Assembly: GCF_003668875.1 (NCBI RefSeq)
Contig: NZ_RAWM01000039.1
Span: forward strand, 2,394 to 66,393
DNA: 64,000 nucleotides
From: Corallococcus interemptor
Lineage (GTDB): Bacteria > Myxococcota > Myxococcia > Myxococcales > Myxococcaceae
Reading direction: 5' to 3'
Below the pieces are notes generated by a model. The model was not told where the DNA came from. It ran no database searches and saw nothing but the letters and a program-made list of their open reading frames with translations. Shown here one piece after another: positions 34,645 through 55,569 of the stretch (positions are counted from its first letter, which is position 1; each line of letters starts with the position of its first letter). Made by a program: the position numbers and the translations under genes.

Positions 34645-36240
34645 ATGACGCCCACGGAAAGGACCCTTGCCCGCCTCCCGGCCCACCTGCGCCGCTACGT
34701 GGTGGCCCAGGACTACGAGGCGTACACGCCCCGCGACCAGGCGGTGTGGCGGCACATCCTGGGGCAGCTGCGCGAACACCTGAGCGACAAGGCCCACCCC
34801 GTCTACCTGGAGGGCCTGGAGGCCACGGGCATTGGCGCGGAGGCCATCCCCAGCCTGGACGAGATGAACGAGAAGCTGTCCAAGCTGGGCTGGGCCTGCG
34901 TCGCGGTGCGCGGCTTCATCCCGCCGGCCGTCTTCACGGAGCTGCAGGCGCTGGGCGTGCTGGCCATCGCGGCGGACATCCGCACCCACGAGCACATCCA
35001 GTACACGCCCGCCCCGGACATCGTCCATGAGAGCGCGGGCCACGCGCCCATCATCGCCAACGCGCGGTATGCCCAGTACCTCAAGGCCGTGGGGCTGGTG
35101 GGGTTCAAGGCCATCGCCAGCGTGGAGGACCAGGCCGTCTTCGAGGCCATCCGCAACCTCTCCGTGGTGAAGGAGGATCCCACCGCCACGGAAGAAGAGA
35201 TCGCCCACGCGCAGGCCCGCCTGGAGGCCGCCAACGCCAGCCACCGCTACATCAGCGAGAGCACCCGCGCGAGCCGCCTGTACTGGTGGACCGCGGAGTA
35301 CGGCCTCATTGGCGACCTGAAGCACCCGCGCATCTACGGCGCGGGCCTGCTGTCCAGCATCGGCGAGGCGAAGCACTGCCTGACGTCCGCCGTGCACAAG
35401 CTGCCCCTGGGCGTGGCGTGCGCGGACACGGACTACGACATCACCCGCATGCAGCCGCAGCTCTTCGTGGCGCGCGACTTTGAACACCTCTTCGAAGTAT
35501 TGGCGGAGTTCGAATCCACGCTCGCGTGGAAGCGCGGCGGGGACTTCGGCCTCAACGAGGCGCTGCGCGCCCGCACGGTCAACCACCTGGTGCTCGCGGA
35601 CGGCCGCGAGGTGACGGGCAAGGTCGTGGAGCTGCTGCCGGGCGCGAAGGACGTGGCCCCGGGCCTGTCCACCGCGCTGGCCCGGCTGGAGGGCCCCATC
35701 CTCACGTCCGTGAACGGGCACGCCCTGGACAAGCCCTTCAGCGGCGCGGCGCTGGTCGCCTTTGGCCAGGGCACCCTGCCGGAGCGCGGCAGCTTCCAGC
35801 TGACGCTCGACAGCGGGCTGGTGCTGGAGGGCTTCGCGGTGGGCGGCGGCGAGGTGATTGGCCTTCGCGGCTCGCTCTCCGGCCGCGAGCTGACGCTGCC
35901 GTCCATGGCGCGCCTGTACCTGACGGAGCGCCTGCCGTCCGTGGCGGGCGGGCCCGCCGACCCGGGCACGTGGGACGAGTGGTTCGGGGAGCTGGACGCC
36001 TTCACCGCGGGCGACGGCGAGGCCCAGGCGCGCGAGCGCAAGGCGCAGGCCCTGCCCCCGTCGCTGGCCGCCCTCTACACGGAGGTGCGCCGCATCCGCG
36101 AGACGGGCCAGCTGGCCCCCGAGCGGCTGGAGCAGATCGCCCAGGCGACCTCGGCCTTCCCGTCCGACTGGCTCCTGCGCGCGGAGGTGGCCGAGCTGCG
36201 CGGCGAGGTGCCCTCGCGGCGTGAAGCGGCGCACGCCTGA
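34645..36240 (+). CDS. phhA: Phenylalanine-4-hydroxylase (biopterin-dependent aromatic amino acid hydroxylase) with about 250-aa C-terminal extension
   Basis: Iron-binding region (HESAGHAPIIAN...YWWTAEYGL), which is diagnostic for the AAAH family. The catalytic core is about 280 aa and is followed by an unrelated C-terminal domain. Start at the ATG at 34645. Confidence 0.85.
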   Translation: MTPTERTLARLPAHLRRYVVAQDYEAYTPRDQAVWRHILGQLREHLSDKAHPVYLEGLEATGIGAEAIPSLDEMNEKLSKLGWACVAVRGFIPPAVFTELQALGVLAIAADIRTHEHIQYTPAPDIVHESAGHAPIIANARYAQYLKAVGLVGFKAIASVEDQAVFEAIRNLSVVKEDPTATEEEIAHAQARLEAANASHRYISESTRASRLYWWTAEYGLIGDLKHPRIYGAGLLSSIGEAKHCLTSAVHKLPLGVACADTDYDITRMQPQLFVARDFEHLFEVLAEFESTLAWKRGGDFGLNEALRARTVNHLVLADGREVTGKVVELLPGAKDVAPGLSTALARLEGPILTSVNGHALDKPFSGAALVAFGQGTLPERGSFQLTLDSGLVLEGFAVGGGEVIGLRGSLSGRELTLPSMARLYLTERLPSVAGGPADPGTWDEWFGELDAFTAGDGEAQARERKAQALPPSLAALYTEVRRIRETGQLAPERLEQIAQATSAFPSDWLLRAEVAELRGEVPSRREAAHA

Positions 36241-36258
36241 TTCGAAAGACAGACGGCT

Positions 36259-36314
36259 GAAATGGAAACGGCCCGGTCGACCTCTTCACGAGGCCGCCGG
36301 GCCGAACCATTTCC
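36259..36314. terminator. Bidirectional intrinsic-terminator-like hairpin between convergent phhA and the LysM/C39 gene
   Basis: Extended dyad gaaatgg-aaacggcccgg...ccgggccgaa-ccatttc, read directly from the sequence. Confidence 0.5.
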
Positions 36315-36328
36315 AACCGCCTGGAGGA

Positions 36329-37945
36329 CTACGCGTTGCGGCGCACCATGGCCACGTCGTAGTGGCGGTCCGTCACGTAGCCGTTCGCGGCCTTGCCGGG
36401 GCGGTACATGTTCCCGGTCTTGTCATCCACGTAGAAGCGGTTGTTCGGGTTCGTGTCCTTGCCCTTGCTGGCGTTGGTCGTGCCCGGGTCGTGGAACGTG
36501 TAGTAGGTGCGGCCCTTGTCGTCGACGCCGCGGCCCGTGATGGTCACGAAGTGGTCCGTGAGGCCGTCCGCGTTGTAGCTCGCGTCCTTGTGGCTGACGC
36601 CCACGACCACCGGCTTGCCCGCCTCCAGCTGCTTGTCGATGTAGTTGCGGCCCTCGGCGGCCTTCTTCGGGTCCACCTTCAGCGCGCCGACGCCGTTCTC
36701 GCTCGTGCCCACCTGGATGCGGCGGTCCGGGCCCAGCACCGTGGCCTTCGCGTCGCGAGCCATCGCCGTCGCGGCCTTGAAGCACGCCGTGTCGCTGGCC
36801 GTGTAGCCGTGGCCGTTCTCGAACTGGCTGTAGTACGGCACCTTCACATGCACCGCCGGCTTGTCCTTCGCGCCGGCCACCTGCTGCGTGTCCGTGCGAT
36901 CCGCCTCCGTCGTGGGCTTGGACGTGTTGGTGCCCTGCGTGTTGCCCGTGCCCTGCGTGCGGCCCGGCTTCGAGTCGCCGTTCACCGACGGGGGGACCAC
37001 GCCCGTGTTGGTGTTGGCCGGCTTCGTCGTGGCGCCGGACTGCTCCTTCTTGAGCATGGCCAGCGCGTCCTTCGCCTCCGACTTGAAGCGGTTGGCCACG
37101 CCCTTCTGCACTTCCTTGGAGTTGCCGGAGAAGTGCACCAGGGTGCCGCTGGCGTTGGTGCGGCCGCGCTCGGCGTAGATGTCCTTGATGAGCTGCTCGT
37201 CGCTCACCTTCGCGGGGTCGCGGCCGGCCAGCGCCTTCTTGAAGATGTCATCCGCCTTGCCCGGGCCGTGCTGCACGGAGGTGGACCAGGCCACGTCGCG
37301 CAGCGCCGCGGAGCGCTTGTCCAGGTCGATGCCCGTCGCCTTCTTGATGTTGGCGGCGCCCGGGTCGTAGTGCGTGGCCTTGATGTAGTCGTGCTGGGCC
37401 TTGTCGAAGCCCTTCGGGTCCTTGGCCGCCAGCTGCTTCCACGCGGAGGAGAACTCCGCGGAGCCCGGCTTGCTGCCCGAAAGTGCCTTGTAATAGTCCG
37501 GGTTCGTCTTCTTCAGCGAGTTGACGAAGGACTGCGCGGAGCCGTTCGCGGACGCGAACTGGTAGGAGCCGTAGGACACGCCGCCCTTGTCGCCCTTGCC
37601 GGTGGACACCGTGCCGGGGCCGCGCGCCTCGTACTTGCGGCTCAGGCTGCCCAGCTCGCCGCCCGCGTTGCTGGTGGAGCCACCCTCGGTGGAGGGCGTC
37701 GTCTTCTGCGTGCCGCTGGTGGACTGGGTGAAGGTGTCGCCCGACGTCTTCGTCCCGGCGCTCGACTTGTTGGTGCCCTTCGTGTCGAAGCCGTCCTGCA
37801 CCTTGAGGGACTGGCCCGTCAGGATCTTGTCCGGATCCTTGATGTTGTTGGCCTTGGCCAGCGCGTCGACGGACGTGTTGTAGCGCTTCGCGATTCCGGA
37901 AAGCGTGTCGCCAGAACGGATGCGGTAGTTGGAGACGTCGGTCAT
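36329..37945 (-). CDS. LysM domain protein with central unknown domain and C-terminal peptidase-C39-like (papain-fold) domain; no signal peptide
   Basis: N-terminal LysM ([29 protein letters not shown]...ILTGQSLKV). The C-terminus has [28 protein letters not shown] ... TDHFVTITG (Cys/His papain-like, peptidase_C39_2-like). Non-biased composition over 538 aa. Confidence 0.75.
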
Positions 37946-38134
37946 GGGGGCCCCCTCATGTCAGGCCGCGAACAAAGGCGCGCGGGCGTGCTTGGATTGC
38001 CACGATTATCGAAAGGCAATGCGATCAGTTTCGCATTCCCAGTCGCAATCGTGTCAAACCAGTGATTCCGGCAACTTCAGTTTCAACGGATCGATCCACC
38101 GAGACTGAAGAGGCTGCCCAGGAGGCACACCCGG

Positions 38135-39154
38135 ATGTCCAGGATCCAACCGGATTTCAAAAGTGTGGCATTGCTGTTTGCCATTTGCGTCACGAGCTCG
38201 GCCCAGGGGGCCGGTGGACTCACGGGGGTCTATTCGAACAAGGGCGGGACGCTGGCCATCGTCGAGGGGAGCAACGAGACGCTGGTCCATCTCTCCGGGT
38301 CGTTCCCGCAGGGCAGCAGCGTGGGCACCTGTGATTGCGCCTTCGCCGTCCAGAAGAAGACGGACGCGGCCTGGACGCTGAGCGAGTCCGGCGCGGAGGG
38401 CAGCTGGACGCTGCGCGTCAATCCCAAGCAATTCGTTCTGGAATCCGGCCCGACGCCGCAGTGCTGTGGCGCTGGCTACCCGGGCAAGGACACGTTCGCT
38501 CGGAGCACGGTGAAGCCGCTGGGCATCTGCAAGGTGAAGGCGTCCAAGGCGGCCTTCCACGCGTCGGACGAGGCCAACACCCAGCGCAAGGCGTTCGTGG
38601 TGTTCGGGGACGCGGTGGAGGCCTACCTCGACCCGGTGGAGCCGGACTTCCTGGCCGCGCGCTTCCAGGGGCCCCAGAAGGCCACGGCGGGGCTGCTCAA
38701 GCGCGAGGACCTGGACTGCTCGGCGGAAGGCCCGCCCACGGCCTCCAAGGCGCCGGTGGCCGCGGACAAGCTCAAGCCCTTCGCGGGGACGTGGGTGGAG
38801 CTGACGCGGCAGGGCAAGGGCTTCGTGGTCCTCAAGCCCTGCTCGGCCGCGACGCGCACCTTCACCATCAAGCCCGCGTCGGGCGAGGTGGAGGTGCAGC
38901 TGGGGCAGGAGTCCACGACGCTGAAGGTGACGTCCGTGGAGCCCGGCAAGGGCGCCGGGGCCTGGGTGCTGGGGCTCACGTCCTCGGACGGCAAGCCGGA
39001 GGCGCTCCAGTGGAAGACGGCCGACGCCGCGAAGGGCACCGTGTCCGTCACCAGCCCGGACCTCTTCTCCCAGAGCCACGACTACGTGCGCCAGGAGAAG
39101 AAGTCCGTCTTCCCATCCAAGCAGGAGACGGGATGCGACGAGTACGAGCGCTGA
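38135..39154 (+). CDS. Secreted hypothetical protein (339 aa, Cys-containing)
   Basis: Signal peptide (MSRIQPDFKSVALLFAICVTSSAQG). Protein-like composition (K/T/S/G-rich). Divergent from the LysM/C39 gene. Confidence 0.6.
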   Translation: MSRIQPDFKSVALLFAICVTSSAQGAGGLTGVYSNKGGTLAIVEGSNETLVHLSGSFPQGSSVGTCDCAFAVQKKTDAAWTLSESGAEGSWTLRVNPKQFVLESGPTPQCCGAGYPGKDTFARSTVKPLGICKVKASKAAFHASDEANTQRKAFVVFGDAVEAYLDPVEPDFLAARFQGPQKATAGLLKREDLDCSAEGPPTASKAPVAADKLKPFAGTWVELTRQGKGFVVLKPCSAATRTFTIKPASGEVEVQLGQESTTLKVTSVEPGKGAGAWVLGLTSSDGKPEALQWKTADAAKGTVSVTSPDLFSQSHDYVRQEKKSVFPSKQETGCDEYER

Positions 39155-54969: not shown

Positions 54970-55569
54970 TCAACCGTGGAGCGTCTCTCCGGCCTCCAGC
55001 ATCGCGACGAACTTCTCCAGCCGCCGTGCCCGCGTCTCCGGCTTCTTCGCGTCGTGGAGCCGGAAGAGGATGGCGTAGCGGTTGGCGCTCTTGAGCGTGG
55101 CGAAGAACGCCTTCGCCTTCGGGCTCTTCTCCAGCGCGAGCTTCAGGTCCTCCGGAACCTCGATGGTCTTCGCCCCGGCGTAAGCGGACTCCCAGCGGCC
55201 ATCCGCGCGCGCCTCCTCCACCTCGCGCAGGCCCGCGGGCTTCATGCGCCCGGCCGCGACCAGGGCCTCCACTTTGCCGCAGTTGATCTTCGACCACTTG
55301 CTGCGGGGCTTGCGCGGCGTGAAGCGCTGGAGCCAGTACTCGGAATCGAAGGAGTCCTTCTGCCCGTCAATCCAGCCGTAGCAGAGCGCCACCTCCAGCG
55401 CCTGCGCGTACGTCACGGACGGGATGCCGGACTCCAGCTTCGCGAGCTTCATCCAGACGCCCGGCGAGTCGGCGTGGTGCTTCTCCAGCCACTTCTCCCA
55501 CGCCTTCTCGGACGCGAACGGCACGGTGGGGAGTTCCTGCGTCGTCTTCGCCTTCGCCTTCGCCGCCAT
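54970..55569 (-). CDS. YdeI/OmpD-associated (OmdA) family protein
   Basis: Sequence WEKWLEKHHADSPGVWMKLAKLESGIPSVTYAQALEVALCYGWIDGQKDSFDSEYWLQRFTPRKPRSKWSKIN is typical of the YdeI/DUF1801-like family. Start at the ATG at 55569. Confidence 0.65.
   Translation of the reverse strand: MAAKAKAKTTQELPTVPFASEKAWEKWLEKHHADSPGVWMKLAKLESGIPSVTYAQALEVALCYGWIDGQKDSFDSEYWLQRFTPRKPRSKWSKINCGKVEALVAAGRMKPAGLREVEEARADGRWESAYAGAKTIEVPEDLKLALEKSPKAKAFFATLKSANRYAILFRLHDAKKPETRARRLEKFVAMLEAGETLHG

Follow-up and report, generated by a model that had tools for sequence, protein, structure and literature searches.

A divergent gene pair with a leaderless, putative three-module enzyme

The window analysed here is a 64,000-nt stretch of DNA from Corallococcus interemptor (RefSeq assembly GCF_003668875.1, contig NZ_RAWM01000039.1, positions 2,394-66,393 of the forward strand) with a GC content of ~70%, in which two divergent genes separated by 189 bp code for a putative peptidoglycan-degrading effector and for its candidate immunity protein. 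The effector gene (36329-37945, minus strand, stop codon at 36329-36331) codes for a leaderless protein of 538 aa made of three modules, and the neighbouring gene (38135-39154, plus strand, stop codon at 39152-39154) codes for a secreted all-beta protein of 339 aa. Both open reading frames (ORFs) are exactly those described by the original prediction, which had been made from the letters of the sequence. Their GC contents at the third codon position (GC3) are 0.97 and 0.92, respectively, which is the coding signature of this 70% GC genome, and we therefore regard both as real genes. A 614-aa antisense ORF (36221-38065) was rejected as a gene, its codon-position GC identifying it as a high-GC artefact. 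The 538-aa product is 100% identical to a C. interemptor protein annotated as 'LysM peptidoglycan-binding domain-containing protein' (P0001).

Two linkers rich in T, G, S and K connect the three folded modules of the effector, all coded on the minus strand. As had been predicted, the protein begins with a LysM peptidoglycan-binding module, which lies at its extreme N-terminus (aa 7-49, 37799-37927) and matches PF01476 with an E-value of 2e-15 (56.9 bits compared to a gathering score of 20.9). The first linker (aa 50-97, 37655-37798) is of low complexity and T/G/S-rich, and its conservation is confined to Corallococcus. It leads to the central region (aa 98-290, 37076-37654), which had been described as reminiscent of cell-wall hydrolases. 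The domain search bore this out, as this region matches PF21277 (T6SS_VgrG3-like_C) over profile positions 1-182 of 183 (E = 6.9e-53, 179.8 bits compared to a cut-off of 27). It also aligns with the structures of the C-terminal domain of Vibrio cholerae VgrG3 (VgrG3C; PDB 4noo and 4nso; E = 4e-27), including a KYE…GD motif, and is thus a VgrG3C-like domain predicted to be a muramidase of the chitosanase/lysozyme fold. Alignment with 4noo predicts an acid pair composed of E106 (37628-37630) and D119 (37589-37591), each of which is conserved in at least 90% of 32 homologs. The KYE…GD motif of the effector matches Glu827 and Asp842 of V. cholerae VgrG3, which we take to be the catalytic acids of that protein.

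A second linker (aa 291-364, 36854-37075), rich in T, A, K, G and P, separates the central domain from a C-terminal domain (aa 365-538, 36332-36853) predicted to be a papain-fold cysteine hydrolase. This domain matches PDB chains 9jdd_A and 9jg8_C (E = 2.2e-21) with the Cys (ACFKA/ACYKA) and His motifs aligned. Both chains were deposited as 'Peptidase C39-like domain-containing protein', and the title of 9jdd reads 'type VI secretion system effector-immunity complex BtaeB CTD-BtaiB from Bacteroides fragilis'. An AlphaFold model of the domain (40 homologs, pLDDT, the predicted local distance difference test, of 88.9) gave 9jdd_A as its sole significant match in a Foldseek search of the PDB (E = 1.7e-13, TM-score of 0.76), followed by weak matches to papain-like (papain-clan) proteases with E-values above 1e-3. 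The predicted triad is formed by C388 (36782-36784), H465 (36551-36553) and D486 (36488-36490), each conserved in at least 90% of the homologs, and C388 is the sole cysteine of the 538-aa protein. The original prediction had likened this region to the Peptidase_C39_2 family. The kind of domain was correctly recognised, whereas membership in the Pfam family was not retained, as PF13529 remained below threshold (18.9 bits compared to 24) and aligned only over profile positions 93-142. Because the match to PF13529 is sub-threshold here and faint in some homologs, and exceeds the threshold (27 bits) in a variant with a shuffled order of modules (L040), we assigned the domain to a putative BtaeB-like clade that is related to C39_2 and lies outside Pfam C39_2 itself. 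An amidase activity for BtaeB-type domains is our assumption, suggested by the name only.

[quoted passage not shown] They are predicted to cut peptidoglycan as a muramidase and as a cysteine hydrolase, respectively.

The effector is truly leaderless, as had been stated. A stop codon lies 5 codons upstream of its ATG, which is preceded by GAGGGGG, and the maximum hydropathy over 10 residues within the first 40 aa is 0.35, compared to 2.87 for the neighbour. Its relatives, found in 80 genome loci and among many database proteins, have either a LysM module starting at residue 3-10 or a non-hydrophobic low-complexity N-terminus, and almost all are leaderless. The premise from which export outside of the Sec pathway had been proposed is therefore sound.

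The secreted neighbour and its association with the effector

The 339-aa neighbour begins with a typical n-h-c signal (…VALLFAICVTSSAQG) of the Sec type (~aa 1-25, …SSAQG, 38135-38209, plus strand), in agreement with the signal peptide noted previously. Its hydropathy peak of 2.87 lies at residue 11, and the ASAQG c-region motif is conserved in homologs, both of which point to a protein putatively exported by Sec to the periplasm. Neither Pfam, NCBIfam nor PHROG contained a match, and its profile yielded no meaningful match among PDB sequences. The mature protein contains eight cysteines, six of which are invariant. Its structural model (pLDDT of 79, with residues 1-26 below 50) is all-beta with at least two lobes. 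A Foldseek search of the PDB returned scattered weak matches, none convincing; the best structural match is the immunity protein BtaiB, to which the neighbour may be related at the level of the fold. We divided the neighbour into two modules, both coded on the plus strand. The N-module (aa ~27-200, 38213-38734), delimited with the help of its stand-alone relatives, contains the conserved cysteines C66, C68, C110, C111, C132 and C195, and is proposed to inhibit the VgrG3C-like domain; no similarity between it and TsiV3, the immunity protein of VgrG3, or any PDB sequence could be detected. The C-module (aa ~206-339, 38750-39151) is a lipocalin-like beta-barrel proposed to inhibit the BtaeB-like domain.

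A scan of a genome collection returned 80 loci, in which the neighbour was sought by tblastn and with hidden Markov models of its modules. Loci coding for all three modules of the effector (tri-domain loci) are spread over five or more genera of myxobacteria and comprise that of the window and others in Corallococcus (nine or more, counting strains and species), Cystobacter, Archangium, Pyxidicoccus, Myxococcus sp. RHSTA-1-4 and one metagenome contig. The neighbour is present, and always divergent, in 21 of the 22 distinct tri-domain loci. Among 20 retrieved loci in which the gap was measured, and which include some duplicate retrievals of one place, 19 have a gap of 123-190 bp. The concern that the two genes might not be co-conserved is thereby dispelled. 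Since the genes flanking the pair differ completely between genera, we conclude that the two genes move as a unit. The neighbour diverges faster than the genes around it: between genera its identity is 42-56%, compared to 60-80% for the two toxin domains, and within Corallococcus its N-terminal half is 84-87% identical, compared to 93-98% for the flanking genes coding for a Biopterin_H protein and a major vault protein (MVP). As far as sequence comparison can indicate, such divergence is the pattern expected of an immunity gene. In Myxococcus xanthus, a paralog that shares the LysM module and the C-terminal domain and has a different middle domain has no such neighbour.

A phage-related reading would make the effector the remnant of a prophage endolysin or tail-associated lysin. 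Its LysM module matches PHROGs of phage endolysins, and its VgrG3C-like domain matches phrog_26249 and phrog_34863 (giant phage proteins of unknown function) with E-values of ~1e-42. However, no phage gene was found in the flanks or anywhere in the window, nor was any holin or spanin; moreover, the neighbour has no PHROG match and the locus is syntenic across species. A phage origin of this kind is therefore barely conceivable.

When 1.84 billion representative proteins were searched with a profile built from the neighbour, 135 matched. Most of these are secreted proteins of ~190-220 aa that cover only profile positions ~15-200, which correspond to the N-module, and such stand-alone secreted N-module proteins form ~60 representative clusters. 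A handful of proteins of 130-180 aa, the size of BtaiB, cover only positions ~200-342, which correspond to the C-module. One stand-alone N-module (P0165) is coded directly downstream of, and with a 4-bp overlap with, the gene for a protein of 668 aa in which PF21277 is the sole Pfam domain. One stand-alone C-module (P0181), which is 34% identical to aa 203-339 of the neighbour, has as its divergent partner P0143, a BtaeB-like protein of 242 aa that stands alone and is 60% identical to the C-terminal domain of the effector. These pairings suggest that the effector is composed of toxin A plus toxin B and the neighbour of immunity A plus immunity B. A metagenome scan for pairings of the N-module with VgrG3C returned only two close full-length homologs, since matches in it are confirmed with the first sequence, and the N-terminal partners of larger proteins containing an N-module have no Pfam domains. 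An orphan gene in Hyalangium gracile (L088:6001-6633) codes for a 210-aa homolog of the N-module only, with no toxin gene nearby, and resembles an orphan immunity gene.

The toxin modules occur in other combinations as well. The order LysM, C39_2, VgrG3C was found in metagenome-assembled genomes of Myxococcales (L040:4123-5664, and also L042, L047 and L053), where modules of these three types were combined independently. In Myxococcus landrumensis (L085:10001-11041), a leaderless 346-aa protein containing only the VgrG3C domain is coded next to genes with RHS repeats, two genes for DUF6968 proteins and an IS66 transposase gene, and the small unannotated ORFs flanking it may code for another type of immunity. 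In a metagenome-assembled genome of Actinomycetota (L029/P0077), the VgrG3C-like domain is preceded, in one fused protein, by a helical region with a W-x-G motif (…LAWAGNDQ…), and this WXG-like N-terminus suggests a toxin of the type VII secretion system kind in Gram-positive bacteria. Module shuffling, a variable site and toxin-island neighbours are signs of the behaviour of polymorphic toxins.

Further arrangements were observed in passing. A Cytobacillus locus (L082) also contains a VgrG3C-like domain. In Myxococcus sp. RHSTA-1-4 (L004:9887-11332), the gene directly downstream of a tri-domain gene codes for a protein of 481 aa that contains SLT (lytic transglycosylase), LysM and Peptidase_C39_2 domains, a further combination of a glycan cutter with a C39-like domain. 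In Corallococcus sp. CP114039 (L086:8190-10849), an extra gene for a 282-aa LysM and BtaeB-like protein (P0140) directly follows the tri-domain gene, and an insertion of two more genes separates the immunity gene from the MVP gene, so that the site behaves as a variable island.

A predicted toxin-immunity pair, its delivery and the flanking genes

The two genes very probably constitute a toxin-immunity pair, in which a bifunctional peptidoglycan-degrading toxin is matched by a fused two-module immunity protein. The candidacy of the neighbour as immunity partner, raised by the original prediction, has gained in substance from the head-to-head co-conservation of the two genes, from BtaiB being the best structural match and thus a possible relative, and from the occurrence of the separate modules beside the matching toxin domains. 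We further consider it probable that each toxin domain has an immunity module of its own. The effector would be made in the cytoplasm without a signal peptide and would act in the periplasm of another cell, where its LysM module would anchor it to the glycan strands, the VgrG3C-like muramidase domain would cut the sugar backbone, and the BtaeB-like Cys-His-Asp domain would cut a peptide or amide bond, so that the sacculus would be breached twice. The neighbour would be exported by Sec to the periplasm of the producer, where its N-module would neutralise the muramidase and its BtaiB-like C-module barrel the cysteine hydrolase, protecting the producer and its kin from incoming toxin.

A leaderless enzyme for which a periplasmic antidote is needed must enter the periplasm of sister cells, which argues for contact-dependent delivery. 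The toxin domains have relatives in the T6SS, Tae17 of Acinetobacter baumannii (discussed below) provides a precedent, and the effector-immunity loci of M. xanthus are scattered; the T6SS is therefore the best candidate. Delivery could rely on the single myxobacterial T6SS with the effector as an 'orphan' cargo, a route that we propose tentatively and hold to be quite possible. Taken as a whole, the account combining a toxin-immunity pair, one module per toxin domain and export as orphan T6SS cargo is in our judgement the best explanation, and a likely one.

Several observations weigh against this account. The orientation of the two genes is divergent, which is less usual for effector-immunity pairs. 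No gene of a T6SS, type III secretion system (T3SS), type IV secretion system (T4SS) or Tad system was found in the 64-kb window, which was fully scanned, and no secretion-system gene was found in eight annotated related loci either. Neither the effector nor any relative seen contains PAAR, VgrG, MIX or another trafficking domain. The sole exception among the 22 tri-domain loci is a second copy in Myxococcus sp. RHSTA-1-4 (L020/L087) that lacks the neighbour; a 275-aa divergent gene beside the L087 copy was considered as a relative of the immunity gene and proved to be unrelated to the immunity family. Each of the stand-alone module-toxin pairings was seen at one locus (n = 1), and two other N-modules are either orphan or without an effector within their 3-kb contig. 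Against the missing linkage to secretion genes stands the situation in M. xanthus, which has one T6SS and effector-immunity loci scattered over its chromosome (PMC10433427). Orphan effector-immunity loci are normal in that species (PMC10433427).

The Pyrinomonadaceae provided a further point of the same kind. At ~29 loci of this family (L032-L083, e.g. L043:5995-6918), a leaderless LysM-VgrG3C protein of ~290 aa is coded within a conserved housekeeping synteny in which the genes run dnaB, TPR-peptidase, alr, LysM-VgrG3C, abhydrolase_11, two TonB genes, gdh, arsC and radA. Near these genes, homologs of the immunity modules were not found at any of the ~29 loci. All-against-all ORF clustering, which is noisy in high-GC loci, was used only for this low-GC synteny. 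That these short genes belong to a contractile-injection or phage-tail operon was considered and rejected, since Pfam showed housekeeping genes. The gene looks like a core cell-wall gene and not like a toxin, so that a leaderless protein with LysM in first position is not marked as a toxin by this architecture alone; the Pyrinomonadaceae form is either a housekeeping autolysin or points to an unrecognised export route for LysM-first proteins.

These relatives, which adjoin the alanine racemase gene in a core-genome synteny, favour seeing the effector of Corallococcus as an endogenous autolysin that would serve cell-wall remodelling in growth, division or the removal of peptidoglycan while myxospores form, with the neighbour as its periplasmic regulator. 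That several Corallococcus species have the pair at one and the same chromosomal site is in keeping with such a role. We nevertheless consider it highly improbable, as a leaderless enzyme cannot reach the periplasm of its own cell and as the pair moves as a unit between unrelated contexts in other genera. Furthermore, each of the two modules that make up the neighbour is also found as an orphan or beside a single toxin domain, which is typical behaviour of immunity genes, and M. xanthus does not have the VgrG3C version.

The effector might alternatively be a predatory bacteriolysin that exits by lysis or a non-classical route and digests exposed peptidoglycan of prey, especially that of Gram-positive bacteria, from the outside, while the neighbour shields the wall of the producer by inhibiting lysozymes or peptidases in the manner of Ivy/MliC/PliC proteins. 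Myxobacteria do lyse prey with secreted enzymes (PMC10433427), the wall-binding LysM and SH3 modules are the only accessory domains in the effector family, and neither a trafficking domain nor a secretion gene is linked to the effector. Yet an enzyme located outside of the outer membrane cannot reach the sacculus of the producer, which would make a co-inherited, fast-evolving periplasmic double inhibitor needless, and the closest characterised relatives of both toxin domains are injected T6SS effectors. We regard a bacteriolysin as unlikely.

Injection during predation by a machinery other than the T6SS, either the Kil system, which is Tad-like, or the T3SS that has no needle (T3SS*), would account for a leaderless and predicted lytic effector that a predatory genus has conserved at one fixed position. 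In myxobacteria, prey killing has been attributed to Tad-like and T3-like systems, the T6SS being mainly tied to kin discrimination (PMC10433427). Still, no kil or T3SS gene is linked to the pair within the window, a folded LysM module at residue 7 is unlike a disordered T3SS signal, and the homologous toxin domains are known only from T6SS contexts, which together make this route very unlikely. In a broader version, leaderless LysM-first wall hydrolases, which we observed in Myxococcota, Acidobacteriota, Sphingomonadaceae and Xanthomonadales, would be a widespread class of cargo for an unrecognised route; those of myxobacteria would be the lytic effectors, long sought, with which the Kil/Tad-like system or T3SS*, and not the T6SS, kills prey on contact, and LysM would double as a recognition element. 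We consider this to be quite unlikely. In the relatives from Luteimonas and sphingomonads, no XVIPCD (T4SS) or other trafficking domain was found.

The 189-bp region between the two genes (37946-38134) was aligned as a candidate promoter region of the effector gene. Across 10 aligned intergenic regions from 5 genera, the only invariant block is a GATAAT box on the minus strand (38005-38010), located ~60 nt upstream of the effector ATG, with a GAAACT/GCAACT-like element ~16 nt further upstream. The GATAAT box is a plausible candidate for the -10 element of the effector gene. A promoter and terminator scan based on a simple sigma-70 consensus reported nothing at its threshold.

The original prediction had also remarked that a vault-protein gene follows the pair. 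Such a gene does follow at 39241 (39241-41514, minus strand, with the ORF open to 41937) and codes for a full-length bacterial MVP homolog with Vault repeat domains 1-4 and MVP_shoulder (E = 4e-45), but no functional link to the pair emerged. This adjacency occurs in only some Corallococcus genomes; the MVP gene is two genes away in another Corallococcus strain and absent from the locus in other genera. The adjacency is incidental. Beyond the MVP gene lie an 85-aa Cys-rich ORF with a signal-like N-terminus (41902-42159, plus strand) and then a gene for a DUF6310 protein (42090-43121, plus strand, E = 2.7e-54) that starts like a lipoprotein (…LLLIVFSAC) and whose C-terminal domain contains a D…EIK motif. 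This ORF pair is conserved in Corallococcus sp. CP114039 (L086), and we speculate that it (41902-43121) might code for a SitA-like lipoprotein toxin. Elsewhere in the window (54970-55569, minus strand), a gene codes for a protein of 199 aa in which an OmdA 'bacteriocin-protection' domain was recognised (E = 6e-23) and which is, as far as seen, unrelated to the pair.

Comparison with characterised effectors

The central domain of the effector is clearly homologous to the C-terminal domain of V. cholerae VgrG3 (PDB 4noo and 4nso; PF21277), whose immunity protein is TsiV3. The likeness extends to the layout of the two systems, namely a peptidoglycan glycosidase acting in the periplasm and a periplasmic immunity protein, the Corallococcus side being predicted from sequence. 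Unlike in VgrG3, however, the effector domain is not carried by a VgrG spike and resides in a free leaderless protein, behind a LysM module and followed by a second toxin domain. Likewise, the N-module of the neighbour differs from TsiV3 in having no detectable similarity to it.

The C-terminal domain finds its counterpart in BtaeB of B. fragilis (PDB 9jdd and 9jg8). According to a second-hand description, BtaeB (Bfe7) is part of an adaptor-dependent T6SS secretion complex (PMC13402684), and is a 617-aa protein with a different N-terminal region and a dedicated adaptor, encoded in a Bacteroidota T6SS(iii) locus (PMC13402684). In contrast, the Corallococcus protein has a LysM module and a muramidase domain in front of the BtaeB-like domain, and neither an adaptor nor a T6SS gene is found nearby. 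Unlike BtaiB, the BtaiB-like module of the neighbour is fused to a second module.

A close parallel in overall design is Tae17 of A. baumannii, a bifunctional T6SS cargo effector composed of immunoglobulin-like (Ig-like), LysM, glycan-cleaving and Cys-amidase domains, whose N-terminal region, including LysM, binds VgrG (PMC11796386). Both proteins are leaderless and have flexible linkers, a LysM module near the N-terminus, a glycan cutter and then a cysteine hydrolase, which in Tae17 is an amidase. Unlike the Corallococcus effector, Tae17 has an extra Ig-like domain in first position, cuts glycans with a lytic transglycosylase and is encoded beside VgrG17. A second bifunctional protein, TseP of Aeromonas dhakensis, is a T6SS effector of chimeric make-up that has both an amidase and a lysozyme activity (PMC11893102). 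The order and the families of its domains differ from those of the effector, and the abstract does not describe a fused double immunity protein for TseP (PMC11893102).

VgrG3, BtaeB, Tae17 and TseP thus provide precedents for the toxin domains and for the bifunctional design, while the new elements are two putative immunity modules fused to match the toxin domains, a pair of putative immunity families without annotation, and the puzzling export of leaderless LysM-first proteins. If the proposed account is correct, two toxin domains known from T6SS effectors that are unrelated to each other (VgrG3 of Vibrio and BtaeB of Bacteroides) have come to follow a LysM anchor in one protein, and the corresponding immunity modules have undergone a parallel fusion, making the pair a compact natural case of 'one toxin domain, one immunity module' bookkeeping, in which each half of the neighbour is predicted to rescue one active-site mutant. 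It would also define two new immunity families, one of which, that of the N-module, comprises ~60 representative clusters and has no Pfam model, and would add a candidate conserved antibacterial weapon of a predatory genus to the bifunctional designs exemplified by Tae17 and TseP.

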